Shown: piece after piece, positions 10,021-39,143 of the stretch
How positions within the stretch are numbered: position 1 is the first letter of the stretch
Layout: each line of letters begins with the position of its first letter
Sequence record: SRR31156797_13268
Length of the DNA: 39,197 bases
Reading direction: 5' to 3' (one strand)
Notes under the pieces: model-generated
What the model was told of the DNA's origin: nothing
Databases searched by the model: none
The model's input: the letters and a program-made list of their open reading frames with translations, nothing else
Translations under genes and position numbers: made by a program

Positions 10021-12048
10021 TTATGCGGATTTCATATTATCGATAATGGACTTGAGCTGGTGTGCCTGAGACGCAAGGTCGGAAACAGCCTCGGAAGACT
10101 GGCGCATGGCACTGTTTGTCTCAGTTGATATATTGTTGATTTCGTCTACAGCCCGGTTGATCTGCTCTGAAGTGGCTGATTGTTCTTCGCATGCCGCTGC
10201 GATTCCCTGAATTTGTTCGGAAACCGTATCGGTAAGTGAGAGAATCTCTGTGAGCGAATTTCCAGCATCCCCGGCCATGTCCGAAACAGTACCGATTTCT
10301 TTGACTGTGTACGCACACTGGCTGATACTTTCTTTGGTGCCGCGTTGGATTTCCGAAATGGCAGCTTCAACCTCATTGGTCGCGGTCATGGTTTTTTCTG
10401 CAAGCTTACGGACTTCGTCAGCAACAACCGCGAATCCTCGTCCGGCTTCCCCTGCGCGGGCAGCTTCAATGGCGGCGTTGAGGGCTAACAGGTTTGTCTG
10501 GTCAGCAATGTCTGAAATTACATCAATGATCTGACCTATTTTTCCTGCACTTCCACCCAATTCTTCCATCTCTTTTTCAAGAGCCTCAGAATAATTCTGA
10601 ACAATGCCGATGCCTTCAACCATTTCCTTGACAACGTTAGCGCCATTGGTGGCGGTTGTGCTGGCGTCCCCGGCAGTTGTTGAAGCTTCACCTGAGTTGC
10701 GGGCAACTTCAAGCACAGAAGCATTCATCTGTTCCATGGCTGTTGCTGTCTCGGCGGTTCTCTGGTTTTGCATGTCAGACCCGGTCGCAGATTGTTCAAT
10801 CTGAGCGGAGAGTTCTTCAGACGCAGTGGATATGACGGCGACGACGTCTTCAAGTTCGCGTGCAGCCTGATGCATGCCTTCGCGTTTGGCGTTTTCAGCT
10901 TCCTTGCGCGCTTCTTCTGCTTCATGCATGGCCTGCTGGGCTTTTTCGGTCGCTTCAGCGGCGTGTCGGGTCTCTTCCTGTGCTTCGCTGATTTTTTCCT
11001 TGAGCGTGACGACCATTGCGTTCAGGTCATTAGCCAGTATGCCGACTTCGTCACGGGTCTTGATCTCAAGCACATGGTCAAGGTCACCTTCGGCAACGCG
11101 GGTGGCGTATTTGGTGGCTTCTATGATGGGGCGGGCCATTGATCTGGCGTAAAGCCATGCCGCAATCATTATGAGCGGCAGGATTACGGCGATGACCAGC
11201 AGTGATGATGTTCCTACATTGTTCTGTGCTGTGACCATAGTCTCGATGGGCATTCCGATAAACCACATGCCGATATTCCTGCCCTCAACATCTTTGATAG
11301 GCCAGTAGGCTGTCTGGTAGTCAATGCCGAGAATATTGTTGCGGGCGAGGAAAGTGTTACCGCGGTCTATGACAGTCGCAGTTACTTCCGGGTTGGTCAT
11401 CTTAGTGCCTACGGCCCGACGACCGTTTTTGATGATTGTGGTCATTTCTCGGGTATCGCCATTGAATACGGTTACCTCGAGGTCGGAGAAATTTTTGACA
11501 TCATCAACAAAGTCTTTGTCGGAGAGGGATGTTCCAAGTGAAATAGTACCGATTATCTGTCCATTTTCTTTGATGGGTGCAGTTGCCCGCAGTGAGAAGG
11601 TGATTTCCTTACCTTTAATGATGCCCGAGGTTACTGTTCCGCGCAGAGCTTTATTTACGGTTCCCTGTCCTTGGACATTGTCACCTAAGCTATTGGCGTG
11701 TGCCCTTCCTAGGACCACGCCGTTTGCATCGGTCAAGGTCAGGAATTCAGATTCTGTTTCCACCATCAGGGAACGGAGTTTTTTCTGTAGTGCTTCTGAG
11801 TTGCCCTGCTTTATGGAGCCGATGAGGTCAATGTCCCGGGCCAGCAGTTCAGCTTTTTCGCGAAATCCTTTGGATAAGCTATCGATATGACGATCGACAA
11901 CTTTCTTCATGGTGGAAATATTGCGAATTGATTCTTTAGAGAACCCTTCCGCAACGTAGTGGTTAACTGTCAGGAAAATTGATGTGGCGGTCAGTAAAGC
12001 AATCACCACTGCCATCAACACGATTTTGTTTCGGATTGAAAAAGTCAT
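10021..12048 (-). CDS. Methyl-accepting chemotaxis protein with periplasmic Cache domains
   Basis: TM-Cache ([13 protein letters not shown]…GRRAVGT…[10 protein letters not shown]…IGMWFIG)-TM-HAMP-MCP signal hairpin. Confidence 0.95.
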
Positions 12049-12715
12049 GACACCCTTTTTGATTAAAAAATTGCGGTCTTTCCCCTCCTAAAAATCCTTC
12101 CTGTTCCAAAAACACTCCCTCCCCAGAGGTGTTTTTGAATCATTCTCCAAGCTGCATTATGCTTGAAGGTGGTGTGATTATTAGTCGAATAAATATTCTA
12201 GTTAATTTTAAGATAGAAGCAATTATAAAATATAAGCGTACTTTGACACATGGTTGAATATTCAGAGTAAGCCTGGATTAGGTTGAAAAGTTGTTAGGTG
12301 AAGCCATTCGGAGGCGTGTTGTCTTTATGGTTGATATCAATATGTGTCCATTTTTCGATGAGGACTCTTCAGTATGTTTCGTAACCCTGTATATTTCATT
12401 TTCATGTCGTTTAAGGAGTAAATTTCAAATATTATTCAATAGATATGCTCTGTTTTTAACAGCATTTCTGAATTATGTTTGAAAGTGGTGCATTTGCTAC
12501 TGCTCCGAATTTTAAGACAAGTGGTTTTAGGAGTTTGCAGTAAAAATAATTATGCACTTGAAATCACATAATAATATTTTGATAGATTATCTTTTGAATA
12601 GTTAGGAGTCTTGAAAAAAAGACCCTATTCGGGAAAGGGTTTACATTGTTAAATGCCGTATCTTCGGTGCCTTATCAGTCTATGTCTTAAATCTCGGACT
12701 CTTATTTTTCAGACT

Positions 12716-12733
12716 TTGTGCAAAAAAGCACAA
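12716..12733. promoter_or_regulatory. Candidate Rex operator upstream of the cytochrome-rnf operon
   Basis: TTGTG-CAAAAAAG-CACAA matches the TTGTG-N8-CACAA Rex palindrome; a further right half-site TTCACAA ends at 12781; dhcA-rnf is a known Rex target in Desulfovibrio. Confidence 0.65.
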
Positions 12734-12864
12734 AATAGTTCAGGTCCGAACATCAAAGAAATTATAATAATTTTTTCACAAGATTTTTAACTTTGAGTTA
12801 AGTCTTTATATTCCAGTGTATTGAGTGCCTAAAATAATTATCCAGACATGGATTTATAAATTCG

Positions 12865-12880
12865 TGGTATAGTACTTGCT
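12865..12880 (+). promoter_or_regulatory. Candidate promoter of the rnf operon: sigma54 -24/-12 element, or an overlapping extended -10 sigma70 element
   Basis: TGGTATAGTACTTGCT has exact TGGYAY-N5-TTGCW spacing; the same bases also read TG-G-TATAGT. Confidence 0.5.
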
Positions 12881-12905
12881 TACTCCGGTGTGTTGAACGA
12901 ATACT

Positions 12906-13249
12906 CAATTGTCTCCGGCACTTGCTGAGCAGGTGACGGTGGTTTCAGGCAATTGTTTATTGGCTCTGGTCGGTGGTCGAAGAGGTATTTCCTACTTGAC
13001 CGAAATGGTATTTTTTGGAAAGGGTTACTCCGAAATAAATACTGAATGATTGACCAATCACTAACCGTCTTCGCGGTTCTTCTTTCACTTCGTGCCTTTC
13101 CCAAAAGGTTTCGGAAGGAAGGACCGCGGGGATGGACGAATCTTTTTTAAAGGCTGTGGGTTGAGGGTTCCATACACTTTTTAAAGATTTACCGGAGGAT
13201 GAAACTGCAAATTGGTGCATAGGGTTTGCTTCTAATCGGTAGTTTCCGG
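12906..13249 (+). ncRNA. Putative structured leader RNA / cis-regulatory ncRNA of the rnf operon (family unknown)
   Basis: Seven consecutive hairpins, including a continuous 22-bp stem (13065-13086 with 13114-13135) whose G·U pairs work only on the + strand. Confidence 0.5.
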
Positions 13250-13295
13250 CCTTAGTGCCTTAATCTTGAATCTTTTTAAATTAAGGATTGATCCG

Positions 13296-13772
13296 TTGAA
13301 GAACAGATATATCCCAATAACTTTAATTGTTGCTGTCTTGTCCGTTGCGGCAATCGCCGGGTTTCTTTTCCCGCCGGCAGTGCAGGAAAATCCGGCCCGT
13401 GTTGTGATGGACAACAGTGGCGGCAGGGTTATTTTTACTCATTTTGTCCATGCGGACGAGTATGGCTACGAGTGCTCCGATTGCCACCACGATGATATCG
13501 GTCAGGAAAGACCTATTGCTTGTGGAAGCTGTCATCCGGTTGCTTTTGATGCTAAATTCAGAGCTGAACATCAGAAGAATTTTCCCAGTGAAGAAGCATG
13601 TCTGCGCTGTCACGATGATGTTCCCACCGGCCCTCTCGCAGAAGAGGACAAGCCTGACACTGAGAGCATTCCCCTGCGCGCTGAAGCTTTTCACGCCCAG
13701 TGTATGGACTGTCACGAGAGTGACGGAGGCCCCTACGGTGAAGATTCCTGTTACGATTGCCATGCGAGGTAG
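13296..13772 (+). CDS. Multiheme (5 CxxCH) cytochrome c, class III-like, Rnf-associated (DhcA position)
   Basis: N-terminal hydrophobic signal/anchor; VIFTHFVH; CSDCH, CGSCH, CLRCH, CMDCH, CYDCH; AFHAQC c3-type motif; start TTG 13296 after TAAGGA. Confidence 0.9.
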   Translation: MKNRYIPITLIVAVLSVAAIAGFLFPPAVQENPARVVMDNSGGRVIFTHFVHADEYGYECSDCHHDDIGQERPIACGSCHPVAFDAKFRAEHQKNFPSEEACLRCHDDVPTGPLAEEDKPDTESIPLRAEAFHAQCMDCHESDGGPYGEDSCYDCHAR

Positions 13773-13777
13773 GTCTC

Positions 13778-14926
13778 ATGCTTAGAATACATTATTCCCT
13801 TGAATCCGATGTTCAGAAGACCATTTTCGACATCACTGCGCCCGCTGAGCTTAACATCTCTATGCGCAACAAGATTCTGAAGATCAAGAAAGGCAAGAAG
13901 CTCGCAGCAGGTGAACTCCTCGCCGAGCGTCCTTCCAAATATGGCGCTGCCTGTAGTGCGGCCTTATCCGGTAAGGCTACCAAGGTTAACTATCACCACC
14001 TGACCATTAAAGCTGACGGCGGTGAAGAAAGCGTTGAACCTATTGATGTAAAGTCCATGGGACCGGGCAAAGAGCTGCTGCGTACCTTGCAGGAACTCGG
14101 TTTGAACATTGCTGTTCTTTCTTCCCATGCCGATAAACTGGTCATTAACGGGCTTAACCCTGAGCCGGGTATTTCCGTTGCCGAACAGCTGCTCAAAGAT
14201 GAGAAAAAGACCATTGAAGCGGGCTTGCGCCTTGCCGAATCCCTGATTACTCCGGTGCACACAACTCTGGCAGTTGCTGCCGGCTCTTCATATGAGCTTG
14301 CCGGTGCAGAGCGTGTCTTTGTTAAGCCTAAATATCCCAACTCCCTTGACGCACTTGTGGTTAAGAAGGTTACCGGAAAGGAATTTCCTGATGACACCAA
14401 AGTGATCAGCGTCATGGATCTCTACAACATCGGCAGGGTTTACGAAACCGGTATGCCTATCACCGATACCATCATGACCATCGGTGAGAAAAACTACCGG
14501 GTGCTTTTCGGGACTCCTGTAGGTCATATCTGCAATGAACTGGGCATTGAAGTGAAGTCCGGCGATAAGGTTGTTCTCGACGGTCCTTTCCGCGGCGAAG
14601 CTGTTTACAGCCTCGACGAAGGAGTAAAGAAGGGCGATTACGGTTTGTTCGTGATTCCTTCCGGTACGTTCCCTTCAATTGAAGACGCAACCTGCATCAA
14701 CTGCGGCGAATGTGTGCTCAGCTGTCCGGCCAGAATCCAGCCGAACATGCTCAGCCGTTACGCCGAGTACGAGATGTTTGAAATGGCTGAAAAGCACAAC
14801 CTGCACAGCTGTTTCGAATGCGGACTCTGCTCCTTCAACTGTACGGTCAGACGTCCTATCCTGCAGTACATCCGTTTTGCAAAGGATCAGCTCCTGGTAA
14901 GCGGTCAGGCAGAAAAGACTTCGTAG
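13778..14926 (+). CDS. rnfC: RnfC-like subunit (two [4Fe-4S] motifs; FMN/NADH motif degenerate)
   Basis: Position in the operon; KLVINGLNPEPG, KPKYP, GTPV, GPFRG, CINCGECVLSCP and CFECGLCSFNC; start ATG 13778 after GAGG/AGGT. Confidence 0.85.
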   Translation: MLRIHYSLESDVQKTIFDITAPAELNISMRNKILKIKKGKKLAAGELLAERPSKYGAACSAALSGKATKVNYHHLTIKADGGEESVEPIDVKSMGPGKELLRTLQELGLNIAVLSSHADKLVINGLNPEPGISVAEQLLKDEKKTIEAGLRLAESLITPVHTTLAVAAGSSYELAGAERVFVKPKYPNSLDALVVKKVTGKEFPDDTKVISVMDLYNIGRVYETGMPITDTIMTIGEKNYRVLFGTPVGHICNELGIEVKSGDKVVLDGPFRGEAVYSLDEGVKKGDYGLFVIPSGTFPSIEDATCINCGECVLSCPARIQPNMLSRYAEYEMFEMAEKHNLHSCFECGLCSFNCTVRRPILQYIRFAKDQLLVSGQAEKTS

Positions 14927-15071
14927 TTGCTGCGCTTCGCGCCTAAATGATTTGATTTCGCTTCCGGTAGCACAAGGAATTCAGGGATCAGTAGATTCTG
15001 AGTATTGATTGAATAATCATACAGGGTTCAGCCGGACTGCGGTTAAACATACAAGTTTCAAGGGTTAAAAT

Positions 15072-16043
15072 ATGACTCCTCCAGTAATTAAAGCAATGTC
15101 CGACATTGCGGTCAGACTCACGGTTTCGCCTGCTCCCCACTGGCGCAGCAAGCGCACCGTGGAGAAGATGATGCAGTATCATCTTCTGGCTCTGGTCCCC
15201 GCTTTGCTCATGGCTTTCAATATGTTCGGTCTGCCCGCTCTCGCGACTGTGGGTATTGCCGGAACCGCTGCCGTTCTTGCTGAGGTTCTCTGCCTCAAGA
15301 TGCAGGAACGCGACGTTAACGTAGATAACTACACCGCACTTTACGAAGGTCTCCTTTTCGCCTTCCTGCTGCCTGCGGGTGCTCCTTGGTGGATGGTAGC
15401 CAGCGGTGCTGTGCTGACTATCGTTATGGGCCGTACTGTTTTCGGCGGATTCGGTGCCAACCCCATCTGTGCCCCCCTCGTAGCTTGGGCCTTCTGTCGC
15501 CTTTCCTGGCCTGCAGCCATGGATATTGATGCGAACCTCGCCCACTTCATGATCAATGCTCCTCTGGACCAGCTTAAGTTCTTCGGTCTCGATACTCTTG
15601 AGCAGTTCAATTATATGGACCTTTTCCTCGGTAAGCAGCTCGGCGGATTGGGTGCCTCTCAGATAATGGCCGTAATGGCCGGGGGAATTTTCCTCATCGC
15701 CACCGGCTGGGTGCGTGTCTTCATTCCCGCAGCATTTCTCGCGGGTGTGGCTGTTACCGCTTCCATCTTCTGGATGATTGATCCTGAACTTTACGCTAAT
15801 CCGCTTTTCCACTTGCTGACCGGATCTGTGATGTTCGGGGCTTTCTTTCTAGCTCCTGATGTTTCTTCCAGTCCCGTTGGTGTCATTCCTCAGGTTCTTT
15901 TCGGACTTATTGCAGGGACTATGGTCATCATTATCCGGGTCTACGGTATCTACCCCGACGGCGTGCCCTTTGCCATTATGGTGGCAAACCTGCTTACCCC
16001 CCTGCTGGACCGCGTGCGTCCCAAACCTTTCGGAGGCAAGTAA
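15072..16043 (+). CDS. rnfD: RnfD membrane subunit
   Basis: VSPAPH, FGGFGANP, LFLGKQLGGLG, GSVMFGAFFLAPDVSSSP, IRVYGIYPDGVPFAIMVANLLTPLLD. Confidence 0.92.
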   Translation: MTPPVIKAMSDIAVRLTVSPAPHWRSKRTVEKMMQYHLLALVPALLMAFNMFGLPALATVGIAGTAAVLAEVLCLKMQERDVNVDNYTALYEGLLFAFLLPAGAPWWMVASGAVLTIVMGRTVFGGFGANPICAPLVAWAFCRLSWPAAMDIDANLAHFMINAPLDQLKFFGLDTLEQFNYMDLFLGKQLGGLGASQIMAVMAGGIFLIATGWVRVFIPAAFLAGVAVTASIFWMIDPELYANPLFHLLTGSVMFGAFFLAPDVSSSPVGVIPQVLFGLIAGTMVIIIRVYGIYPDGVPFAIMVANLLTPLLDRVRPKPFGGK

Positions 16044-28225: not shown

Positions 28226-28434
28226 TCGGCTCGTCAGTTACACTTGATTAAGCGGGTGAGTGGAAACACTTATTTTAATTAAAGTATAGACTTCGGTAGT
28301 AATAGTTATTATTAGCTTTGATGAAGAAGTGTGATTTAATAAGATAGTCATCAAAAAGAATAATTATTTTGAATATGCTGATGCTAATTGCACATACTTA
28401 ATTGAATCGATATTTAAATAAAAAGGTTGAATTT

Positions 28435-30168
28435 ATGAATATTTCCACTCGATTAAAGCTCTCTGCCTTTGTTCTCGGTTTTATCCCGGTTATTATGGCC
28501 CTCATCCTTTTTGCTTTAAGCCCGGATTTTCTTTTTGGCTCTACATCTTCAACCGTTCTCATCTGCGGTATTGCTGCAAGTCTGATGCTGACAGTTTTTA
28601 TCGTCTACAGCATCAGTCGTAATGTAATTGCGCCGATTGAAAATTTGCGTGATTTTGCAGTTGATGTGCAGAAAGGTAGGGCTAATGATGAATGCTCCGG
28701 TTTTTATATGTATGAGCTGGAAGAACTCAAGATTGCAGTCTGCGCTATGGTTGCCAGTCTGGGAGAAGCCAACAATAGAGCTGAATTATTGAGTGAGGAG
28801 GCCCGTAGTAAGGCTGTCGAAATTGAAGCTGCTTTGCAGACCAGTCGGGATAAGGAAGAAGAGACTCAGAAACTCATTGCTTCCATGCGTAAAGTTGCTG
28901 ATAAGGCCGGGAATTCATCCGAACGAATTTTTTCAGATATAAGTGATTTGAGTGATCGCATTGATAAAGTCGGTGAAGGTGTGGAGGTCCAGCGTGACCG
29001 CATGACTGAAACCGCCACCGCCATGGAGGAGATGAACTCCACGGTGGCCGAGGTTGCTCGCAATGCATCCCTTGCCGCCGGAAATGCCGACCAGTCACGG
29101 GAAAATGCAGCAACCGGAGCGCGCGGTGTCAATGCTGCCGTTGATGCAATTAAAAAGGTTGAGGATGAGGTCCTTTCTCTTAAACAGACCATGAGCCAGC
29201 TTGGTGAACGGGCTGAGAATATTGACCGCGTGATTAACGTCATCAACGATATTGCGGACCAGACCAATCTGCTGGCTCTGAATGCTGCTATTGAAGCCGC
29301 AAGGGCTGGTGAAGCAGGGCGCGGATTTGCCGTTGTTGCTGATGAGGTCCGCAAGCTGGCTGAAAAAACCATGGAAGCTACCAAAGAGGTCGGTGACGCG
29401 ATTACTGATATTCAGGAACATGCCAAAACCAACGTGGCCTCTGTGGAACGCGCTGCCGCTGATATTGTTGCCGGTACAGAGACTGCGGTTGAGTCTGGCA
29501 AATATATGCAGGAAATTGTCACCATTATCGAATCCACTTCCGAGCAGGTAGAATCCATAGCCACTGCTTCCGAAGAGCAGTCCGCTACCAGCGAAGAAAT
29601 TAACAATGCGGTTTCCGATGTGACTCATGTGGCGCAGGATACAGCAGAGGAAATGGGGGAAGCACGTCAGATTCTTCTTGAGGTTTCAAGTCTTGTTCAG
29701 GAACTCGATACCCTGATCCATGGTATGGCTGAGGGCGACCTTGTTTCGGCTGCCGGTGATGAACTGGTTACCTGGAGTGACAGTGCTTTTTCCGTGGGTG
29801 TTAAAGTTATTGATGTGCAGCACAAGAAGCTGGTCGGCATGATCAACGGATTGCACAAGGCCATGCGTGACCGCGCATCCGATACAGTTATGAAAAGGTT
29901 AGTGGAAGAGCTCAAGAATTACACTGTGGACCATTTCAGCACTGAAGAAAGACTTTTTGACCGTTACGGCTATCCCCAGACCCCCGCACATAAGGAACTC
30001 CACGAGAAGTTCGTCAATCAGGTTCTTGAGTTTGAAGCTGCATTGCTTAGCGGTAAAGCCAAGGTGACCATGGATGTCATGCAGTTTCTCAAGGACTGGC
30101 TGGTACAGCATATTCAGGGTGAAGACCGCAAGTACACCTCATTCCTGAACAGGCACGGGGTCCGTTGA
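28435..30168 (+). CDS. Methyl-accepting chemotaxis protein with C-terminal bacteriohemerythrin domain (DcrH-like O2 sensor)
   Basis: Two TM, HAMP, MCP hairpin, then [29 protein letters not shown] diiron ligands; start ATG 28435. Confidence 0.93.
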
Positions 30169-30214: not shown

Positions 30215-31726
30215 TCAAGCCGCGCTGCTTTCATCTGCAAAACAGGCTGTTACCTTAGTTCCTGTTGCTTCAGCGGAGTGCATTGAGATTGTAGCTTTGT
30301 GTGTTTCGGCAATGAGTTTGGCGGAATATGTTCCCAGTCCGGTTCCGTCTTCTTTTCCAAGAGTGACATATTTATCGAAAAATCTCTCCCTGACCTCTTC
30401 AGGAACAGCAAGGGTATTTTTAACAGTCACAGATATGGGCGGCCCGCTATTGATGGAGATGGTCACGGTATCGCCTTCATTGGATGCTTCCACCGCATTT
30501 TTGATCAGGTTACGGAACATGGTCCGCAGAAGCATGCCTTCTCCGGTCAGGAACAGTTCTTCCACTCCTTCTATTTCCCTGCCGTCCAGCATGATGGAAA
30601 GTTTTACCCCGGACTGATTCAGTAGCAGGGCCATCTCTTCTTCCAGTGAGGTCATCAGGTCTACTAGATCCACGCGCATAGTTTTCAGCCGGTAGATTCC
30701 CTGCTCCATTTTGAACATATCCAGATGGAACTGGATCATATCAAGCATGCGGTAGCCCGCTGATGCGATGCGCTTGATATATTTACGCTGGTCTGCACTT
30801 AGCGGTTCTTCGCTGTTGAGCAGTAGCTCCGGGTAACCGATAACAAGGTTGAGGGAGGATTTGAGGTCGTGCCTGTTAATGCGCTCCACCTCATCTCGGA
30901 TCATTTCTGCTGTGCGTCTTTCATGGATTTGCTGCACCAGCAGTTTATTTTTCTTTTCCAATTCCGCTTGCTTGGAACGCAATTGTCGGGTGCGCTGCGA
31001 AACAATGTTTTCCAGCATTTCCCTGTGGCTGTTCAACCATTGGTCCCGCTTGTCGATTTTGGCCAGCATGGAGTTGAATTCAGTAACCAGATAGCCGATT
31101 TCATCGTCACTGCGGTAGGAGACCCGACGGGTGTAATCTTTACTTTCTGAAATATCACGGACTGTATCTGTTAATTGTCCGATGGGTTTGGTCAGTTTTT
31201 TGCGGAGATATCCAGTGGCTAGAAAACAAGTGGTCAAAACTGTGACCAGGATAAGCCCGGAAGTGGCCAGATTTTGGAAGAACCAGTCCAGCTGGTCGGT
31301 GAAGCAGCCGTCCAGAACAATGTAGCCCAAAAGTTCATCTCCGGAACGGATCTCTTGTACAATGTGGTAACGGTTGAAGTCTTCAATTGTCTTTGAAGTA
31401 CCCGCGGGAAGTTCCTTGGTTTGAGTCCCGAATTCTGCGAAAATTTTACCATCCGGGGTGAAGATGGTTGCTCCCACTGAATTACCGACAAGGGCCAGCG
31501 ATTCAAGAACCTCAGTTGCCGAGTCCCGGTCATCGAAATCTAGGGCCGGTGCTACGGAAGTGCTCAGAACCTGTGTTAACGAGGTCGCTTTTTTCAGGGT
31601 TGCCTGCCTGAATGAATGGAAAAAGGAAGCGATATTCAGGGTCATGGAGATCACTACCGCGGCAATGGTCGTACCTAGAATCGCGAGGCCTACTTTACGC
31701 CCGATGCTGTTCCGGTATTTTTTCAT
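30215..31726 (-). CDS. Membrane sensor histidine kinase (YfiN/CHASE8-like periplasmic domain, HAMP, HisKA, HATPase)
   Basis: PALDFDDRDSATEVL periplasmic motif, HAMP (DDEIGYLVTEFNSML), RHDLKSSL H-box, NLIKNAVEA, FFDKY, GTGLG; ATG 31726 overlaps the yfiR-like stop (ATGA). Confidence 0.9.
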   Translation of the reverse strand: MKKYRNSIGRKVGLAILGTTIAAVVISMTLNIASFFHSFRQATLKKATSLTQVLSTSVAPALDFDDRDSATEVLESLALVGNSVGATIFTPDGKIFAEFGTQTKELPAGTSKTIEDFNRYHIVQEIRSGDELLGYIVLDGCFTDQLDWFFQNLATSGLILVTVLTTCFLATGYLRKKLTKPIGQLTDTVRDISESKDYTRRVSYRSDDEIGYLVTEFNSMLAKIDKRDQWLNSHREMLENIVSQRTRQLRSKQAELEKKNKLLVQQIHERRTAEMIRDEVERINRHDLKSSLNLVIGYPELLLNSEEPLSADQRKYIKRIASAGYRMLDMIQFHLDMFKMEQGIYRLKTMRVDLVDLMTSLEEEMALLLNQSGVKLSIMLDGREIEGVEELFLTGEGMLLRTMFRNLIKNAVEASNEGDTVTISINSGPPISVTVKNTLAVPEEVRERFFDKYVTLGKEDGTGLGTYSAKLIAETHKATISMHSAEATGTKVTACFADESSAA

Positions 31727-32283
31727 TGTGGTGTGTCTCCGCAATAGATTTCAGACAGTTTCAGCAGTTTGGAACTGATAGTCAGCCCCGCTTTACGCGC
31801 CGCACAGATATTGACCTGCAGTTTGAAGCGTGAACCGGATTCCACAAGGTTGATCATGCCGCCCATTCGCAGAAATTCAGGGCTCTGCCCGATGGTCAGG
31901 ATCGGCTTGTCTTTGATCTTATTGAGCACAGCGGCAATTATGCGCGGATTGTCCACATCTATGAATAGAACTTTGAACTTTTCATCCGGCCAGCGAACCA
32001 GTTTAAATTTGTCCGGGTTTCTGAAGAAGCGGGAAATTTTTTTCGGGGCGAGTGCAGCTACGGTTATCGGACGTTCCGTAGCTATTCTGCGTTTATCTGG
32101 ACCAAGTACATATTTTGTAATTTTCTTGATAAATAGAGCCTGTAGCTGCGGCTGGGTGACCTTGATCCGGAGTTGTTGTCCTGTTTTTGAACGGGCATGC
32201 GCAGGCTGTTCGGTTATGGAACATACCATAAAAAGAGTGGCAATTGTAATTGCCAGTATTTTATGGGGTTTTAGAAGTCCCAT
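31723..32283 (-). CDS. YfiR/HmsC-family periplasmic protein
   Basis: Signal peptide; LQALFIKKITKYV, PILTIGQSPEFLRMGGMINLV, VNICAARKAGLTISSKLLKLS; start ATG 32283 after GAGG. Confidence 0.88.
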   Translation of the reverse strand: MGLLKPHKILAITIATLFMVCSITEQPAHARSKTGQQLRIKVTQPQLQALFIKKITKYVLGPDKRRIATERPITVAALAPKKISRFFRNPDKFKLVRWPDEKFKVLFIDVDNPRIIAAVLNKIKDKPILTIGQSPEFLRMGGMINLVESGSRFKLQVNICAARKAGLTISSKLLKLSEIYCGDTPQ

Positions 32284-34202
32284 ATCAACCTCAGTGTGCA
32301 TGATGGTTCGGAGGGAGAGTAGTTCCCTTGGTCAACATTGATCAGCAGGTTGTTACCGATAAGTTCTACAGACAAGTCTTCACGGGCCTGCCAGGCCAGC
32401 CGTGCATCAAAGCCGAATCCGGTGGAAAGATCCTTGTCATCCATGCTGTTGATATAGGAAGTGAAGAGGTCCAGTTCCCAGTCTTCGGCAAGGTCGATGA
32501 TGGCCTGTAGTTTAATGCTGTACAATGGAGTGTTCAGCGGTGGTGAAAAACCGGGAATGCCGGGTGGGGTTTTGGGGAAATCCTGATTGGATATATCCAG
32601 TGAAGGACGCAGGGTCAGAAAAGAATAGGGTTGCCAGTCAAGGGCAATTTCAGTTCCGTATGAAATTCCGCACAGCCCGCTGATCGGACTGGCTGTATTT
32701 GTGCTGTCATCAAAACTGAAAGTGATCATCTCATCATAATTATTAAGGTAAAGAGAGATATCCAGTTTCAATGTCTCGCTGAAAAGTTTACGGTACCCGG
32801 CTTCAACTGTAGTCAGTTTTTCATTTTTCAAGTTACCGCTGAAATCGACATTGTACTCTTTGTCTTTGATTCTGACCCGGTAGTTTCCTTCGCGGAGCCA
32901 GTAACTGGGCTGGCGGTTAGCGTAGGAAATTGCCAGCCAATATTCTTCATCATCTTCCATATACAGGAGGCGTGCAGTGGGTTGAGGGGCCAGTTCGCTG
33001 TCCCCGGAATAGTCTAGTTTCAGACCGAGGGTCAGGAAAAGTTTTTCATCAATCAGGGTAATACGGTCTTTAGCGAATCCGCTGAAATCAAGGCGGTAGA
33101 TGCTGTCGTTTGCTACCTGTACGTTTTCTCCCTGCTTAAAGGAATTCCAGAAATATTTTCCACCCAGCCCGAAGGTCAGAAAATGGTCTTCAAACTGTTC
33201 GTTGGAATAGATGAATTCTGCATCAACTGTATTTGACATGTTGTCCATGTCCGCAACAGTGATGGCGGTTCGGGTATAGGAAGAACGGAACTGCATGCCG
33301 GATTTGGCTCCGGTTTTTCTGTCCCAGAGGAGCTGGGTGTAGCCACTGTAATCGCTTTTATTCTTGTTGGCTGAGAATGGGTTACCCGGAGGAGAGTCTT
33401 CCATAATTGAAGATCCGGCTATCTGGCCTTGCAGTGAAAATTGGTCGGTATAGGCGTTTAACCAGTCAGCACGGAAACCTCCGCTTCCGGTGACCCAGTC
33501 TGTAGAACCTTTTTCGGTTCGGCCCCGGATGTGATAATTTTTACCGGGTTCATATTCACCTTTGGCATATACTGCCATGGTTGCGTTTTCAGATATCATT
33601 CCGCCTTTACGGATAAACTGGCTGACCCCATCTGTTCCTGCAGTGGTTACGCTTTGCGTTTCCTGCAATTCCGCAGCAGATTTGGTTATAATATTGATTA
33701 CGCCGTTGAAAGATTCAGATCCCCAGAGACTGGTCCATGGGCCGCGGATAACTTCGATCCGCTTCACTGTCTGGATGGGCAGGTTCTGGCTGGACCAGAT
33801 AACCCCGTGGAAGTAGGGCGATGTAATGGGTCTATTGTCGACCAGAATGAGCTGTTTACTGCTGAATGTTCCTGAGAATCCTCTTACTCCGATGGCCCAT
33901 TTGTCTGTGTCGGTGCGGGTCACAATCACGCCGGGAACTGTACGCAAGGCTTCAGGGACTGATCTGGCTCCGCTGCGTTTAATGTCTTCCTCGGTAAGGA
34001 TGGTGTATGAACCGGCTATGTTTTCAAGGGATTGTTTGCGTTCGGAAGGGGAGACCATTTCGACCTGCAGGAGGTCTTCGAGATCGAGGTTTTCCAGCTC
34101 TGCAGAGACATCCTTGTCTTCTGCAAAACTTGGTGCGGTTCCGGTCAACATGACCAGAATAATGAGAGAGAGGGCAACAACTGCCAACCGCAACCGGATC
34201 AT
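32271..34202 (-). CDS. TonB-dependent outer-membrane receptor of the YfiR-associated type
   Basis: Signal peptide; plug LEDLLQVEMVS…EDIKRSGARSVPEALRTVPG…RIEVIRGPWTSLWGSESFNGVINIITK; beta-barrel with C-terminal WDF. Confidence 0.9.
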   Translation of the reverse strand: MIRLRLAVVALSLIILVMLTGTAPSFAEDKDVSAELENLDLEDLLQVEMVSPSERKQSLENIAGSYTILTEEDIKRSGARSVPEALRTVPGVIVTRTDTDKWAIGVRGFSGTFSSKQLILVDNRPITSPYFHGVIWSSQNLPIQTVKRIEVIRGPWTSLWGSESFNGVINIITKSAAELQETQSVTTAGTDGVSQFIRKGGMISENATMAVYAKGEYEPGKNYHIRGRTEKGSTDWVTGSGGFRADWLNAYTDQFSLQGQIAGSSIMEDSPPGNPFSANKNKSDYSGYTQLLWDRKTGAKSGMQFRSSYTRTAITVADMDNMSNTVDAEFIYSNEQFEDHFLTFGLGGKYFWNSFKQGENVQVANDSIYRLDFSGFAKDRITLIDEKLFLTLGLKLDYSGDSELAPQPTARLLYMEDDEEYWLAISYANRQPSYWLREGNYRVRIKDKEYNVDFSGNLKNEKLTTVEAGYRKLFSETLKLDISLYLNNYDEMITFSFDDSTNTASPISGLCGISYGTEIALDWQPYSFLTLRPSLDISNQDFPKTPPGIPGFSPPLNTPLYSIKLQAIIDLAEDWELDLFTSYINSMDDKDLSTGFGFDARLAWQAREDLSVELIGNNLLINVDQGNYSPSEPSCTLRLIWDF

Positions 34203-34903
34203 GCTTCGGCCTGTGTCCTCGAAGTCATCATATACCCGCGTCCGCGAATAGTTTTGATTGAGACGGAATCACCGATTTTGCGGCGCAGGTTGCTCATATG
34301 CACGTTGAGCACATAGTCGTCGAAGTCGGCGCTCCTGCCGAGGGCGATTTCCATGAGTTCGTCACGTTCAATGAGTTTTCCGCAACTGGCGGCTAGATGT
34401 TCAATGATGCTGAATTCTGCAGCGGTGAAGTGGGTTTCAATTCCTTTGACCATGATGGCGTGGGAATCAAGGTTGATGTCGAGTTCCCCGACTTTGAGTT
34501 TACCCCGTGAACTGGGGGTGATGCTCGGGGATTGCAGGGCCATGGAGCAGCGGCGCAGGGATGCACGCATGCGGGCCAGCAGTTCGCGCAAGGGAAAGGG
34601 TTTGCAGATGTAGTCGTCAGCTCCCATCTCGAGGCCGACAACCCTGTCTACTTCGTCCCCCTTACCGGTAAGCATAATTACCGGAACTGTTGAGTCCAGC
34701 CGGATTTTCTCCAGCACATTCAGCCCGCTGATATCAGGCAGGACAATATCCAGCAGGATGAGGTCGTATTCATCGCAGCTGAATGCTTTGAGTCCTTCTT
34801 TGGCAGTGCATTTGTGATGCAGGCTGTACCCTTCGCCGTCCAGATAGGTGGATAAAAGTTCCCCCATCTCCGGGTCGTCGTCGATAAGAAGTATCTTGTT
34901 CAT
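34199..34903 (-). CDS. OmpR/CpxR-family response regulator
   Basis: MNKILLIDDD, LLDIVLP (phospho-Asp), GADDYICKPF, winged helix LNVHMSNLRRKI…IKTIRGRGY; ATGA overlap with the receptor gene. Confidence 0.95.
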   Translation of the reverse strand: MNKILLIDDDPEMGELLSTYLDGEGYSLHHKCTAKEGLKAFSCDEYDLILLDIVLPDISGLNVLEKIRLDSTVPVIMLTGKGDEVDRVVGLEMGADDYICKPFPLRELLARMRASLRRCSMALQSPSITPSSRGKLKVGELDINLDSHAIMVKGIETHFTAAEFSIIEHLAASCGKLIERDELMEIALGRSADFDDYVLNVHMSNLRRKIGDSVSIKTIRGRGYMMTSRTQAEA

Positions 34904-34960
34904 AATGTTCTCCTGCCAGGCATACTATGTGTTCAGAAGGGATAAGCAAATAAGTTTAGT

Positions 34961-34995
34961 GTAAATAAATGTTAAATAGCTTAAGAAATGTTAAG
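34961..34995 (+). promoter_or_regulatory. Tandem direct-repeat boxes, candidate response-regulator sites, upstream of a TATAGT -10 at 35012-35017
   Basis: GTAAA-N5-GTTAA (34961-34975, CpxR-box-like) then TTAAG-N5-TTAAG (34981-34995), with 10-bp periodicity. Confidence 0.6.
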
Positions 34996-35120
34996 AAGAG
35001 GTTTGTTTGTCTATAGTGTCCACAATTTGGACGGTGTGTGAAAATATTTCCCTCATAAACGTTCTTTACCTCCGCTGCGTATAAGCAAGTAAAGGCAGGT
35101 GAGTCGGTTACCTGTCAATA

Positions 35121-35150
35121 GTGCAAGGATGTACGATAAAACACGGAGGT
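35121..35150 (+). promoter_or_regulatory. Candidate CsrA sites in the flagellin leader
   Basis: GTGC-AAGGAT-GTAC hairpin with GGA in the loop, plus ACGGAGG overlapping the SD. Confidence 0.55.
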
Positions 35151-35154
35151 TTTT

Positions 35155-36012
35155 ATGTCATTAGTAATCAATAACAATACCATTGCAAATGCGACCGCGC
35201 GCCATCTTAATGATGCTTACAGCGCACTAAGTTCTTCCACTGAAAAGATGTCTTCCGGTCTGCGTATTAACTCTGCAGCTGATGACGCCGCAGGTCTTGC
35301 TGTTCGCGAACTTATGCGTTCGGATATTTCAACCCTGCAGCAGGGTGTGCGAAATGCCAATGACGGTATTTCCATGATCCAGACTGCAGACGGTGCACTC
35401 GGCGTTGTGGATGAAAAGCTTATCCGCATGAAGGAGCTGGCGGAACAGGCCGCAACCGGAACCTACACTTCGGACCAGCGGGCCTTGATTGACCAGGAAT
35501 ATCAGGCCATGGCTTCGGAAATTACCCGAATCGCCAATGCTACTGATTTTAATGGTATTCATCTGCTCAATGGTAATGTTTCCGGCGATAATGCTGTGAC
35601 CATCCATTTCGGAACCGGTAACGACAGCGCGGAAGATAAGTATGATATTGAGATCGGTACCTGTACCGCCTCTGCTCTCGGTATCGGTAATCAGAGTGCT
35701 GAAAATGCAGGCTACACCGTATCCACTCAGGAAGCGGCTCAGGCCTCACTTGAAGCACTTGATAATGCAATTATTTCCAAGGATAAGATCAGGGCGAACC
35801 TCGGTGCTCTTGAAAACAGGCTCGACGCAACCATCTCCAACCTTGAGATTCAGGGTGAAAATCTGCAGGCCGCAGAATCACAGATCTCAGACGTTGATGT
35901 TGCAACCGAGATGACCAACTATTCCAAGCAGCAGATCATCACTCAGTCAGCAGTTTCAATGCTTGCACAGGCAAACTCATTGCCTCAGATGGCTCTGTCA
36001 CTCATCGGCTAG
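35155..36012 (+). CDS. fliC: Flagellin (short, 285 aa)
   Basis: SSGLRINSAADDAAGLA, RNANDGISMIQTADGAL, RANLGALENRL, ESQISDVDVATEM, MLAQANSLPQMALSL. Confidence 0.96.
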   Translation: MSLVINNNTIANATARHLNDAYSALSSSTEKMSSGLRINSAADDAAGLAVRELMRSDISTLQQGVRNANDGISMIQTADGALGVVDEKLIRMKELAEQAATGTYTSDQRALIDQEYQAMASEITRIANATDFNGIHLLNGNVSGDNAVTIHFGTGNDSAEDKYDIEIGTCTASALGIGNQSAENAGYTVSTQEAAQASLEALDNAIISKDKIRANLGALENRLDATISNLEIQGENLQAAESQISDVDVATEMTNYSKQQIITQSAVSMLAQANSLPQMALSLIG

Positions 36013-36036
36013 TTCGTCAACTTTTAAAATTTAACC

Positions 36037-36062
36037 AAGGCCCGGTTTGCCGGGTCTTTTTT
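36037..36062 (+). terminator. Intrinsic terminator 1 after flagellin
   Basis: AAGGCCCGG-TTTG-CCGGGTCTTTTTT. Confidence 0.88.
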
Positions 36063-36074
36063 GTTTTTATACCT

Positions 36075-36114
36075 GAGGCCGTAGTCCTGTTTTGTTGGGA
36101 TTGCGGTCTTTTTT
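36075..36114 (+). terminator. Intrinsic terminator 2 after flagellin (tandem)
   Basis: GAGGCCGTAGTCCTG…TGGGATTGCGGTCTTTTTT, stem with G·U pairs plus U tract. Confidence 0.75.
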
Positions 36115-36197
36115 GCGTCTGGAAGCAGGCAGGTTCTTCCGGCAAAAACTTCCCTTTCTTGCACAAGCATATTTCAGCTCTCAGAATAGATTTTGTT

Positions 36198-36213
36198 GCT
36201 TAAGAATCGTTAA
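36198..36213 (+). promoter_or_regulatory. Second copy of the tandem-repeat box, upstream of the ECF sigma-flgD-flgE unit
   Basis: GCTTAAGAATCGTTAA, 14/16 identical to GCTTAAGAAATGTTAA at 34979-34994, same orientation. Confidence 0.6.
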
Positions 36214-36352
36214 TTTCAGTCTTTTTTCATTATCCAGCCTAAAGCTATTTAATAAATCCTGAATTCAATCTGTTTTATTCTAAACGTAATCTCATTGTAT
36301 ATTAATGTTGTCGGGAATGTAAGTTGCTTCTTTCTAAGCAATAGGAGGAAGT

Positions 36353-36898
36353 ATGAATACTTACATTGAAAGAAAATGCGAATATATTTCTGAAAGAGAA
36401 ATAAGTTGTTTTTTTTATGAAAATATTAATTTCATTAAAAATGTAGTTAATAAGTTTATATTCTCGAAATATGTAGGTGCTACAAAAAGTGATGTGGATG
36501 AAGTTTGTCAAGAAGTAGCATTAAAGATTTTAAAAAATGACTACATAGCAAAGTACTCCTCTGAAAAAAGCTCTATAAACACTTGGTTGTATATTATAAG
36601 TCATTCTGTTGCCGTTGATTACATGAGAAAAAATAATCGCATATATATTAATGTAGATGATCTTGAAGAGCTCTCAGCACCTGAAAATGAAAAAATAGAT
36701 TTTAACTACCCTGAAAATATTTTGTCCAAGAGACAAAAGGAAGTCGTAAGGATGATTTTTTGGGGAGATTTAAAGGCTGTTGAAGTAGCTGAACAGTTGG
36801 GGATCACCTCCCGTACAGTTCGCTGCATCAAGCATCAGGCAATCCAAAAACTCCGCCGCCATTTTTCAGCGGTCAATGAGAGGAGGGTCGTATCATGA
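36353..36898 (+). CDS. ECF-type sigma-70 factor
   Basis: Region 2 DVDEVCQEVALKI…SINTWLYIISHSVAVDYMRK; region 4 LSKRQKEVV…VAEQLGITSRTVR…AIQKLR; AGGAGG RBS; markedly AT-rich. Confidence 0.85.
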   Translation: MNTYIERKCEYISEREISCFFYENINFIKNVVNKFIFSKYVGATKSDVDEVCQEVALKILKNDYIAKYSSEKSSINTWLYIISHSVAVDYMRKNNRIYINVDDLEELSAPENEKIDFNYPENILSKRQKEVVRMIFWGDLKAVEVAEQLGITSRTVRCIKHQAIQKLRRHFSAVNERRVVS

Positions 36899-37572
36899 GT
36901 GTCGACGGCGTTAGCTACTACAGCAGCTTAACCGGGTCGGATTCGGCCAGTTCCGCAACCACGGCCAGCGACAATACCTCGCTTGATCAGGTTGATTTTC
37001 TGACCCTGCTGACCACCCAGCTGGAATATCAGGATCCTACCAACCCCGTGGATAACACCGAAATGGTCAACCAGATGACCAACTATTCCATGCTCGATGA
37101 AGACGTCCAGCAGAATGAAAATCTGGAGACCATCATCAACCAGCTGGATGCCCTCTCCGCCCTGAGCACCTCCGGTTACATTGGCGAAGATGTCATGGCT
37201 GACGGCGGGATTCTCACTGTGGAAGACGGTACAGCCACTAACGTGACCATAGACCTGCAGGAAGATGCTTCTGTTCTCGGCCTGAATATTTACGACACTG
37301 ACGGAACCCTTGTGGACACCGTTTACTACACCGATCTCGAAGCGGGCGAATTTGAAATTTCCGGTGAGGATATCTTGAGTAATTCCAACCTTGAATCAGA
37401 CGGAACCTACATCGCCATGGCCTTTGCCAACGATGCCGACGACGCATCAATCCCAGTCTACATCAAGTCCCCCGGGACCATTACCGCAGTGGATCAGGAC
37501 GACTCAGGTAACACAACCCTGACTCTTGATGACGGCCGGGAAGTTTCAATCACCGACGTTACTTTTATTTAA
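36895..37572 (+). CDS. flgD: Flagellar hook capping protein FlgD (very acidic variant)
   Basis: DFLTLLTTQLEYQDPTNPVDNTEMVNQM motif, YIG, IYDTDGTLV, DGTY; ATGA overlap with the sigma gene. Confidence 0.92.
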   Translation: MSVDGVSYYSSLTGSDSASSATTASDNTSLDQVDFLTLLTTQLEYQDPTNPVDNTEMVNQMTNYSMLDEDVQQNENLETIINQLDALSALSTSGYIGEDVMADGGILTVEDGTATNVTIDLQEDASVLGLNIYDTDGTLVDTVYYTDLEAGEFEISGEDILSNSNLESDGTYIAMAFANDADDASIPVYIKSPGTITAVDQDDSGNTTLTLDDGREVSITDVTFI

Positions 37573-37601
37573 ATAAATTTAATAAACGCAGGAGCAAAAA
37601 G

Positions 37602-39143
37602 ATGAGTGTCACCAGTTCTCTGTATACCGGAATTTCAGGCCTTAATGTAAACTCACAGGCAACTTCCGTGGTTTCCAACAACCTCGCCAACTCTTCAACG
37701 GTTGGATTCAAAAGTTCGGATGCGGTCTTTGAAGATGTCTTCTACTCCACCATCACCACCGGAAGCGGCCTTTCACAGGTAGGCAACGGGGCCGGGGTCT
37801 CCACCATTAACGTCGACTACACTCAGGGGTCTTATGAAGACTCCAGTGTCTCCACCAACGTGGCCCTTAATGGTGACGGTTACTTTATAGTAGTGGACCC
37901 GGATACCAGCACCACTTACTACACCCGCGCCGGTAACTTTGATTTTGATAAAGACGGCTATTTGGTCGATCCATACGGCAATCAGGTTCAGGGTTGGGAA
38001 ATTGAAGACGGTACAGCCTCCGGTTCTCTGACTACCATCCAGCTGGACCAGTCCCAGTCACCGCCCAAGGCTACTTCCGAGATTAGTCTGACCATGAACC
38101 TTGATTCCCAGAGTGTGGATGAGGCAATTACCTCCAATCCTTACACCTCCCTGTTCGAACTTTACGACGGTACTGAAAATCCGCCGCTGGATGATTCGCA
38201 GTACAGTTATTCCACCACTATGACCGTCTATGATGAAAACGGTTCAGCACATGACATGACCTATTATATGGACCCGGTTGATGTGGACGCGGACGGTAAT
38301 ATTATTTGGGAATATGTAGCAGCCACTGACGCTGAAGATGATATGCGGACCGGAGCAGGCGGCAATGCCTTGAATACCACCAGCGGTGCAGGACTATCCA
38401 TGACCGGGACTATGACTTTTAACTCTGAAGGCCAGATGACTTCCATGACAGCCTTCACTCTTTCCAATGCAGCTACATCTGCCGACACCAAGGACCCCGA
38501 TCAGTGGGGCTTGGCTGACCTCAGCCCTGAAGGTTACCCGGAAGTGAATCTCAACTTTACCGGAAGCACCAGTGGGCAGGATGTGGCGATAAACTTCGGT
38601 ATGTCCAGTGACGATGCTACTTGGGATACTTCCGGGGGGATCAATACCCTTGGCGATATAACCGCTGCTACCGCCTATTCGGATTTACCTTCCTTTTCTG
38701 ATTATACCCTCGAATTGGGAGCTACCACCAGTTACAGCGACAGTTCTTCAGCTACCTACAGCGTTGGGCAGGATGGTTACCCTACCGGTTCACTGGTTTC
38801 CGTTGAAGTAGATGAAAACGGTATCCTTGTCGGTAACTATTCCAATAGCCAATCTATCGAACTTTACCAGCTCGGGCTTGCCGATTTTACCAACGAAGGT
38901 GGGCTGACCGCAGAGGGTGGGACCTTGTTCCGGGCCACCACCGAGTCCGGTGAAGCCATCATCGGAACCGCCGGGTCCGCAGGGTTCGGAACCGTAGTTT
39001 CCAATTCCCTCGAAGCCTCAAACGTGGACCTCGCTTCCCAGATGACCGAGCTGATCATCATTCAGTCCGCCTATCAGGCCAACAGTAAGGTTGTAACAAC
39101 AGCCGACACTTTGTTGCAGACTGCAATTTCATTGAAAAGTTAG
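37602..39143 (+). CDS. flgE: Flagellar hook protein FlgE (very acidic variant)
   Basis: NNLANSSTVGFK, ALNGDGYF, YTRAGNF, VYDENGSAH, QDGY, YSN, LEASNVDLA…YQANSKVVTTAD. Confidence 0.95.
   Translation: MSVTSSLYTGISGLNVNSQATSVVSNNLANSSTVGFKSSDAVFEDVFYSTITTGSGLSQVGNGAGVSTINVDYTQGSYEDSSVSTNVALNGDGYFIVVDPDTSTTYYTRAGNFDFDKDGYLVDPYGNQVQGWEIEDGTASGSLTTIQLDQSQSPPKATSEISLTMNLDSQSVDEAITSNPYTSLFELYDGTENPPLDDSQYSYSTTMTVYDENGSAHDMTYYMDPVDVDADGNIIWEYVAATDAEDDMRTGAGGNALNTTSGAGLSMTGTMTFNSEGQMTSMTAFTLSNAATSADTKDPDQWGLADLSPEGYPEVNLNFTGSTSGQDVAINFGMSSDDATWDTSGGINTLGDITAATAYSDLPSFSDYTLELGATTSYSDSSSATYSVGQDGYPTGSLVSVEVDENGILVGNYSNSQSIELYQLGLADFTNEGGLTAEGGTLFRATTESGEAIIGTAGSAGFGTVVSNSLEASNVDLASQMTELIIIQSAYQANSKVVTTADTLLQTAISLKS

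Follow-up and report, generated by a model that had tools for sequence, protein, structure and literature searches.

On the sensory side, the systems most akin to the locus described here are YfiBNR (TpbB/DgcN) of Pseudomonas and E. coli, whose YfiR has a redox switch, and HmsCDE of Yersinia. Our locus occupies positions 30215-39143 of a 39,197-nucleotide stretch of Maridesulfovibrio DNA (sequence record SRR31156797_13268, called the window throughout), where genes for an OmpR/CpxR-type response regulator (RR), a TonB-dependent receptor (TBDR), a YfiR-like periplasmic protein and a sensor histidine kinase (HK) stand divergent from genes for a flagellin, a small sigma factor, a hook cap and a hook protein; we call this unit, as it recurs in related genomes, the cassette. 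Like YfiBNR, the cassette sets a DUF4154 protein beside an inner-membrane sensor of the CHASE8/YfiN type and encodes an outer-membrane partner in the same operon. Unlike YfiBNR, its output is a histidine kinase and not a GGDEF cyclase, its outer-membrane partner is a TBDR and not a YfiB OmpA/Pal-like lipoprotein, and the cysteines of its YfiR-like protein are not conserved. The same three proteins, in one operon, are described in NCBIfam as the TOL_0244 TBDR, the TOL_0243 YfiR-like protein and a YfiR-associated kinase (NF053590, NF053591, NF053592), a trio to which the cassette operon adds a cognate RR, with the accessory flagellar set as a candidate output in plain view. The window proteins all score below the curated cut-offs of these families: the best match of the TBDR is to NF053590 (E 8.5e-102, 341.7 bits vs a cut-off of 645), the sole match of the YfiR-like protein is to NF053591 (64.6 vs 125 bits), and the best match of the kinase is to NF053592, HK_near_YfiR_like (residues 13-231, 143.4 vs 194 bits). 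Two further systems invite comparison. As in FecA-FecR-FecI, the known case of TonB-dependent cell-surface signalling, the proposed signal runs from a TBDR to a sigma factor of the extracytoplasmic-function (ECF) type; unlike that system, the cassette has neither an STN domain on the receptor nor a FecR-like anti-sigma factor, and its relay would pass through the YfiR-like protein, the kinase and the RR, with the sigma factor controlled at transcription. Where Vibrio, Shewanella and Bradyrhizobium have dual polar and lateral flagella, basal body and export apparatus come in duplicate too. Cassette genomes likewise hold more than one hook and filament set under separate regulation; unlike the dual systems, they have one FlhA and one rod cluster each.

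On the flagellar side, the nearest description is that of the RpoE6/Asf6 accessory cluster of Azospirillum brasilense Sp7, published in 2025, in which RpoE6 drives a small minor flagellin with D0/D1 domains only that enters the existing polar filament; similar clusters occur in Rhodopseudomonas, Bradyrhizobium and Magnetospirillum, and the authors state that the activating signal of RpoE6 is unknown (PMC12826043). Judged by design rather than by sigma-factor orthology, the cassette is an RpoE6-like kind of cluster in another phylum. It departs from the Azospirillum arrangement as there described in that its sigma gene comes first, with a stop codon overlapping the flgD start, in that it has no anti-sigma or fliS gene, and in that its promoter reads CGTATA where Azospirillum has CGTGAG; it adds a sigma54 first tier, a linked sensor made of a two-component system with TBDR and YfiR-like protein, and a depletion of lysine and arginine. 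The cassette thereby offers a candidate upstream signal pathway for accessory flagellar clusters of the ECF-sigma kind. Closer in phylogeny, the D. vulgaris regulon of sigma54 and its enhancer-binding protein DVU1063 takes in DVU1443-1445 (fliK-flgD-flgE), a flagellin, DVU0307 and flgKL (PMC4641369), and a 2025 survey counts hook and cap genes among the sigma54 targets in Desulfovibrionia (PMC12316311). With this regulon the cassette shares hook, flagellin and junction genes behind sigma54 promoters, to which it adds a private sigma factor and an OmpR-type RR. A first-pass annotation of the window had put the locus forward as a candidate new system. That label was overstated: both halves have precedents, in the NCBIfam trio and in the RpoE6 cluster, and the cassette combines modules of two known kinds. 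What gives it value is the visible candidate output for an unstudied sensor trio, the candidate signal input to ECF-sigma flagellar sets and a strongly conserved charge design.

We put at roughly 0.55 the probability that the cassette joins an RR-TBDR-YfiR-CHASE8 sensor arm to a complete external flagellar set that is polyanionic, poor in lysine and arginine (K/R), served by a private sigma factor and gated by the RR. Under this scheme, the operon sigma-flgD-flgE-flgK-flgL-fliD would be transcribed from a sigma54 promoter and would therefore depend on the ordinary flagellar enhancer-binding activator. The private sigma factor would then recognise TRAACG-N16/17-CGTATA, a near-unique promoter in front of the cassette flagellin gene, the two steps together making a predicted three-tier cascade (sigma54, private sigma, flagellin) of interest to flagellar biology. 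The phosphorylated RR would bind TTAAG direct-repeat boxes in both intergenic regions, and so gate the cassette and autoregulate its own operon. Upstream, by analogy with YfiBNR, the YfiR-like protein would restrain the CHASE8 domain of the kinase until the receptor, on sensing its ligand, captured it. The spare flagellin, FlgD, FlgE, FlgK, FlgL and FliD would be exported via the sole flagellar gate onto the normal basal body. We infer all binding and regulatory steps from comparative sequence analysis, and likewise the sign of RR action, the ligand and what the system is for. Probably the cell is able to alter its flagellar surface in response to a cue, and our best guess at the purpose is a variant of flagellar surface charge or of resistance. 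A more specific version, in which the TBDR-YfiR-kinase-RR signal swaps hook cap, hook, junction, filament cap and filament for a polyanionic version almost devoid of K/R on one basal body, some genomes holding a basic counterpart as well, we regard as tentative and well short of an even chance. If true, cells would be switching the charge of their flagellar surface, or their resistance to proteases or phages, under a programme set by the environment.

Gene content, accessory status, synteny, conserved cis-elements and charge bias can be read directly. All eight genes named at the outset were recovered at their coordinates by open reading frame (ORF) listing together with Pfam and NCBIfam scans of the window proteins. 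The sensor operon lies on the minus strand and begins with the RR (34199-34903; Response_reg and Trans_reg_C), followed by the TBDR (32271-34202; plug and barrel, with Pfam reporting the Plug domain, PF07715, only), the YfiR-like protein (31723-32301; DUF4154, PF13689, with a conserved MGLL start at 32283) and the kinase (30215-31744; CHASE8-HAMP-HisKA-HATPase by Pfam, with a conserved ATG at 31726 that is likely the true start). On the plus strand follow the cassette fliC (35155-36012), encoding a flagellin of 285 residues with D0/D1 only (Flagellin_N, Flagellin_C), a small ECF-type sigma gene (36353-36898; 181 residues, regions 2 and 4 only), an accessory flgD for the hook cap (36895-37572; 225 residues) and an accessory flgE for the hook protein (37602-39143; 513 residues; FlgE_D2, Flg_bb_rod, Flg_bbr_C). 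The family domains of FlgD, FlgE and the flagellin all score above the Pfam cut-offs, and the sigma factor matches TIGR02937 at 60.3 bits (cut-off 42.9), with r2 and r4 recognised by Pfam. ATGA overlaps join RR to TBDR, YfiR to HK and sigma to flgD, and the conserved YfiR start overlaps the end of the TBDR gene, so that the translational coupling of the four sensor genes read by the first-pass annotation is borne out at every junction, as is the divergent spacer of 251 bp between RR and fliC (34904-35154) with sigma, flgD and flgE beyond. That annotation had also asked what lies past the window end: in relatives, flgK-flgL-fliD continue the same operon, and an AraC-type gene comes after fliD, with no fliS or Asf6-like gene there.

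The cassette recurs as a single conserved unit, roughly 12 genes long, in a minority of Desulfovibrionaceae. The window TBDR matches five Maridesulfovibrio chromosomes at 72-92% identity, and the eight genes keep the same order in all five loci. Among 201 Desulfovibrionaceae genomes, 17 carry a homologue of the YfiR-like protein (E<=1e-8); in 20-kb contexts of 15 further such loci, HK-YfiR-TBDR-RR stand divergent from fliC, sigma, flgD and flgE in 14, with identity down to 38% in the TBDR and 34% in the YfiR-like protein. The two halves thus stay together, where a break in synteny among relatives had been named as grounds for giving up the idea. The set used below comprises 20 cassettes, the window and those of nineteen other Desulfovibrionaceae genomes, and in all of them the spacer between RR and fliC measures 245-263 bp and TBDR, YfiR and HK adjoin one another as overlapping frames in one operon. 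The exceptional locus (L041, G011:C40) has a weak YfiR-like gene (24% identity) and a kinase, with no flagellar genes. A protein homology search with the sigma factor returned close Maridesulfovibrio relatives only, that of M. salexigens being 90% identical to the window's, and an ESM Atlas search returned generic small-sigma clusters only. Two genomes carry a tandem second cassette flagellin (L003, 6859-9048; L027, 13133-15386); the second copy in L003 has a different upstream region without the CGTATA promoter and keeps the same leader end.

The strongest evidence that the two-component system belongs with the flagellar set comes from sister loci that have the sigma factor and other sensors. 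Homologues of the small sigma factor occur in 59 of the 201 family genomes vs 2 of 401 genomes sampled phylum-wide; apart from genome G001, the phylum-wide match is at L089 (G381:C127), in an 8-Mb genome, with no flagellar genes within 15 kb. Among the 30 sigma loci listed, each viewed with 1.5 kb on either side, a flagellar axial gene lies beside the sigma gene in 26, and a divergent homologue of the OmpR-type RR (31-46% identity) in 17. In 15 larger contexts the RR adjoins the sigma gene in 12, with flgD-flgE-flgK-flgL(-fliD) and/or flagellins nearby. The RR beside the sigma gene in L078 is 45% identical to that of the window. In two loci analysed with Pfam, the gene after the RR encodes an ordinary HAMP-HisKA-HATPase kinase, and CHASE8, YfiR and TBDR are all missing; only the kinase core of the sister-locus enzyme aligns with that of the window (21% identity). 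Direct repeats of ATGTTAAG or TGTAAAG, with about 10-11 bp from one repeat to the next, are seen again in the sister spacers and before their flagellins. A conserved core of RR, sigma factor and axial genes with exchangeable sensors is what a real regulatory unit would be expected to look like, and so supports one; the TBDR-YfiR-CHASE8 input looks like one derived input, as judged from the FlgE tree described below. The tie between RR and flagellar genes proposed in the first-pass annotation is in this way strengthened by orthologous RRs that stand divergent from the same sigma and axial set in the company of other kinases.

Within the cassette, conserved elements mark both intergenic regions, IG1 (RR/fliC) and IG2 (fliC/sigma), which were aligned from the 20 cassettes. 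In IG1, a putative sigma70-type promoter of the RR operon (TTGCTT-N16-TAGTAT, 34922-34949, minus strand) was read from the sequence in a block conserved in alignment A1 and in the 20-locus alignment. Beside it the alignment places a direct-repeat box of three xTTAA(G) half-sites 9-10 bp apart (34971-34995), a candidate RR site, and IG2 holds a second TTAAGAANNNTTAA box (36200-36213), with the sigma54 promoter about 100 bp downstream of it. The 39-kb window contains TTAAGAANNNTTAA two times in all (34981 and 36200; expected 0.03, with none of 100 shuffles reaching two), and the box in the RR/fliC spacer departs from it by at most one mismatch in 18/20 cassettes (shuffle mean 0.27). The observation that the same repeat precedes both flagellar units therefore stands, in the window and in relatives. 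Genome-wide counts of TTAAGAANNNTTAA show no enrichment over a reversed-pattern control, and the box is thus informative by position and conservation only; two copies upstream of a second sigma gene in G001 are kept in G001 and G005 only, and we do not rely on them. Further along IG1 come the fliC promoter (35056-35083, plus strand) and the fliC leader (35123-35149, plus strand), where GCAAGGATG and the Shine-Dalgarno sequence CACGGAGG carry GGA sites that resemble the CsrA consensus; GCAWGGAWG is found there in 19/20 cassettes. An intrinsic terminator (36039-36062, plus strand; GC stem and T-run, with its structure conserved in alignment A2) closes the fliC unit. Both regions also contain partly conserved palindromes of the GGRAA-N5-7-TTYCC kind: one, GGRAA-N-TTYCC-like, abuts the fliC -35 (35038-35052, seen by reading in about 12 of the 20 IG1 rows), the other is GGCAAAAAnTTCC (36139-36154, from the IG2 alignment), and related GGGTTTTTCC stretches stand before flagellin promoters in L080 and L081.

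Two kinds of promoter divide the flagellar half. That of fliC, TAAACG-N16-CGTATA in the window, is ECF-like. Its generalised form TRAACG-N16/17-CGTATA is present in 19/20 cassettes, has its sole genomic match here in G001, G003 and G125 and is one of two matches in G089 and G157 (0-2 per genome for the reversed pattern); it is absent from the other three flagellins of G001, the canonical one of which has a sigma54 promoter. One B. subtilis ECF consensus is TGAAAC-N16-CGTATA and that of sigma28 is GCCGATAA, and the fliC promoter resembles the former more than the latter. Where no clear sigma28 promoter had at first been seen before fliC, it is true that no classic one exists, but a strongly conserved ECF/sigma28-like promoter does. 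This promoter persists in G125 and G157, whose sole member of the sigma family is the cassette sigma, which is therefore the best candidate reader; the cassette's own sigma factor thus probably reads the fliC promoter. In sister sub-families, GGATGWW-N13-15-CGTATA precedes the sigma gene and is the sole genomic match in G001, G003 and G008 (the sigma promoter of the second G001 set, in L006, reads GGATGTT-N-CGTATA). G078 has two such promoters just beyond its accessory flagellin gene on the same strand; they would lie upstream of a flagellin start, the flagellin match running off the end of L078. A common CGTATA -10 with a varying -35 fits a family of small sigma factors that read their own and their flagellin promoters.

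The sigma-flgD-flgE operon is preceded by a sigma54-type promoter, GG-N8-TTGCT (36313-36329, plus strand), found by regular expression in 18/20 cassettes; in the remaining two the extracted string ends inside the motif. The element follows the sigma54 consensus in its TTGC core and in the 10-bp spacing of GG and GC. It stands some 40 bp ahead of the sigma start: relative to the called start codon its position is -39 to -41 in 16 cassettes and -27 in two with a differing start call. No sigma54 promoter was found upstream of sigma in the sister loci, several of which have GGATGWW-N-CGTATA instead. With this promoter the accessory operon is plugged into the ordinary flagellar hierarchy, and the suggestion that the set is switched on outside that hierarchy fails: canonical Desulfovibrio hook genes have the same kind of promoter (PMC4641369), and the fliC leader bears CsrA-type sites. 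Taken as a whole, the first-pass interpretation keeps its accessory set, its synteny, its conserved box and its link to the RR, and loses independence from the hierarchy along with the claim of novelty.

For the sensor arm, domain content agrees with the assigned roles. The YfiR-like protein matches PF13689 at 87.1 bits (cut-off 24.9), and the kinase has a CHASE8 domain (48 bits, cut-off 27) with HisKA and HATPase as output and no GGDEF by Pfam. TonB_C proteins are found in 5/5 genomes. Just past the signal peptide of the TBDR, at about residues 36-56, runs a conserved stretch, LDLEDLLxVEVVSPSxRKQ, in which L36, L39, E42, L44 and V47 are nearly invariant (alignment A3), and this stretch is possibly the TonB box. 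The receptor and the YfiR-like protein, between which the first-pass annotation had proposed a relay, were fold-docked with TBDR residues 28-643 and YfiR-like residues 38-192. The docking score was 0.60, the best of three controls giving 0.00; agreement between runs covered at least 48% of contacts, and partner pLDDT (predicted local distance difference test) was at least 75. By the same procedure the docking mark is reached by 51/78 solved complexes and by 2/108 mismatched pairs, and scores of 0.60 or less belong to only 5 of those 78 complexes and to all 4 passing mismatches (of 180). In the literature we found no experimental study of the TBDR/YfiR-like/kinase trio. It is widespread, and here it is joined to an easily scored output, a flagellin and a hook operon; a cassette in cultivable Maridesulfovibrio makes its signalling logic directly testable.

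Several points weigh against the scheme we prefer, and they bear on two of its parts, the hold of the RR over the flagellar genes and the relay through the receptor. An OmpR-type RR cannot activate a sigma54 promoter. The RR is therefore not a direct activator of the sigma operon, and would only gate, modulate or repress it. The best-conserved box, that of the RR/fliC spacer, is about 30 bp from the -35 of the candidate RR-operon promoter, so that autoregulation alone could account for it, and the copy in front of the sigma operon degenerates among the deeper cassettes (at most one mismatch in 10/20 and at most two in 13/20; shuffle mean 0.15). There is also no anti-sigma gene, the sigma stop overlapping the flgD start with no ORF between. 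On the sensory side, Pfam finds no STN signalling domain in the TBDR. Across 20 orthologues (alignment A4) the YfiR-like protein lacks conserved cysteines, and the redox switch of YfiR therefore probably does not apply here. The docking result is a weak pass, obtained without feeding in orthologue alignments, and it lends the relay weak support; beside it the relay leans on the YfiBNR analogy.

Some of the first group of observations would be expected if adjacency came without control, the operon of two-component system, TBDR and YfiR-like protein regulating itself only (for example in substrate uptake) and the flagellar set being run by sigma54, a general activator and its own sigma factor. 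The sigma54 promoter in the cassettes, the inability of OmpR-type RRs to act on it, the place of the best-conserved box and the weakness of the other in deeper cassettes all suit such an arrangement. We nevertheless think it unlikely, as the arrangement and the spacer length are kept in 20/20 cassettes while identity of the sensor proteins falls to 34-44%, an orthologous RR is divergently paired with sigma and axial genes where the kinases differ, and box-like repeats also precede the flagellin genes of sister loci.

Some of the second group would suit a kinase that senses a periplasmic cue directly, the TBDR being a mere importer and the YfiR-like protein only a ligand-responsive partner of CHASE8. 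A receptor without an STN domain, a docking score no higher than 0.60 (controls 0.00) and the service of the same RR by ordinary kinases without a TBDR in sister loci speak for it; the translational coupling of the TBDR, YfiR-like and kinase genes, the recognition of the trio across phyla by NCBIfam and a docking score that cleared all three controls speak against it, and we hold this account to be about as doubtful as the previous one.

The cassette flagellar genes are spare external parts for a single basal body. G001-G005 each have four full-length FlgE and three FlgD, and five deeper cassette genomes have three FlgE each, namely a canonical, a cassette and a lone copy; canonical and lone FlgE were found in all 10 cassette genomes examined, so the separate hook genes on which accessory status had been made to depend do exist. 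In G001 the canonical fliK-flgD-flgE-flagellin locus lies elsewhere in the genome. FlhA is single-copy in the same 10/10 genomes, and each genome has one rod gene cluster. Given the additional canonical and lone copies and the one FlhA, these genes constitute an accessory set whose products have to pass through the one export gate. A second complete flagellar system was considered and rejected, given one FlhA per genome, and so was identity of the cassette sigma with FliA, which is present separately and above its curated cut-off in 5/5 genomes. The cassette flagellin forms an orthogroup of its own, with 80-89% identity between genomes vs 70-74% to other flagellins. In a quick maximum-likelihood tree of 38 FlgE sequences (the near-identical L001, L002, L004, L005, L030 and L034 left out), branch support by the Shimodaira-Hasegawa-like approximate likelihood-ratio test (SH-aLRT) was 100 for the lone clade, 95 for the canonical clade and 98 for all sigma-linked FlgE, and the 14 FlgE of TBDR cassettes form one clade (SH-aLRT 100) nested in the sigma-linked group. 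The lone flgE lies directly after a gene for a tetratricopeptide repeat (TPR) protein (in L008, G001:C1:3291000-3309000, 7198-9770), and a lone copy is present in 10/10 genomes. G001 has in addition a second sigma-flgD-flgE-flgK-flgL-fliD set beside gal genes (L006, G001:C1:396000-412000, 6601-15746), with a sigma factor 34% identical to that of the window; a 104-aa ORF (7435-7749) fills the gap between its sigma and flgD genes and could encode an anti-sigma factor. On Desulfovibrio hook paralogues we found no paper, the FlgE2 papers among the matches listed concerning Campylobacter, Helicobacter and Cereibacter only.

The axial proteins of the cassette had been called highly acidic, and this proved, if anything, an understatement. 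The window FlgD has 2 K+R in 225 residues and a net charge of -42, the FlgE 9 in 513 and a net charge of -59. In 20/20 cassettes K+R make up 0.4-2.3% of FlgD, 1.4-3.1% of FlgE, 2.5-4.0% of FlgK and 2.4-5.5% of FlgL, with D+E at 10-21% in the cassette axial proteins. The second G001 set is basic (its FlgD has an isoelectric point of 9.5), and the net charges of cassette and second set are -42 vs +9 for FlgD (canonical -16), -59 vs +2 for FlgE (canonical -26), -81 vs +8 for FlgK, -51 vs -4 for FlgL and -97 vs +17 for FliD. Other sigma-linked sets range between K/R-poor and basic. By reading of the figures, the three sets that lack a neighbouring RR (L006, L084, L085) show the mildest K/R depletion, with FlgE K+R of 6.0-8.9%; in RR-linked sets the value runs from 1.4% to 5.5%. 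Our literature search turned up nothing relevant on charge-biased hooks. The pattern points to a design rule by which whole external flagellar sets served by one export apparatus come in K/R-free and in basic copies. It might be thought that so extreme and conserved a bias, in a set complete from hook cap to filament cap and with its own regulator, marks a distinct non-motility appendage or a secreted polyanionic polymer (for adhesion or metal binding, for example), but we consider this very improbable given the ordinary flagellar domain architectures of all the proteins, the one FlhA and one rod cluster per genome, by which the product must sit on the normal rotating basal body, and the usual CsrA-type sites in the fliC leader.

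Two minor observations may be added. At L091 (G116:C7, 8751-14794) an RR lies beside sigma, and tblastn finds four matches to the cassette flagellin after it, with no hook genes in view; two of the matches are long and two shorter, the latter maybe later parts of the same genes, and all are relatively basic (K+R 9-12%). Within the window itself, the region upstream of the cassette (1522-30168) is rich in signalling genes, with four GGDEF or GGDEF-EAL proteins, an M48 peptidase-TPR protein and three methyl-accepting chemotaxis proteins, one of which (28402-30168) has a C-terminal hemerythrin domain.

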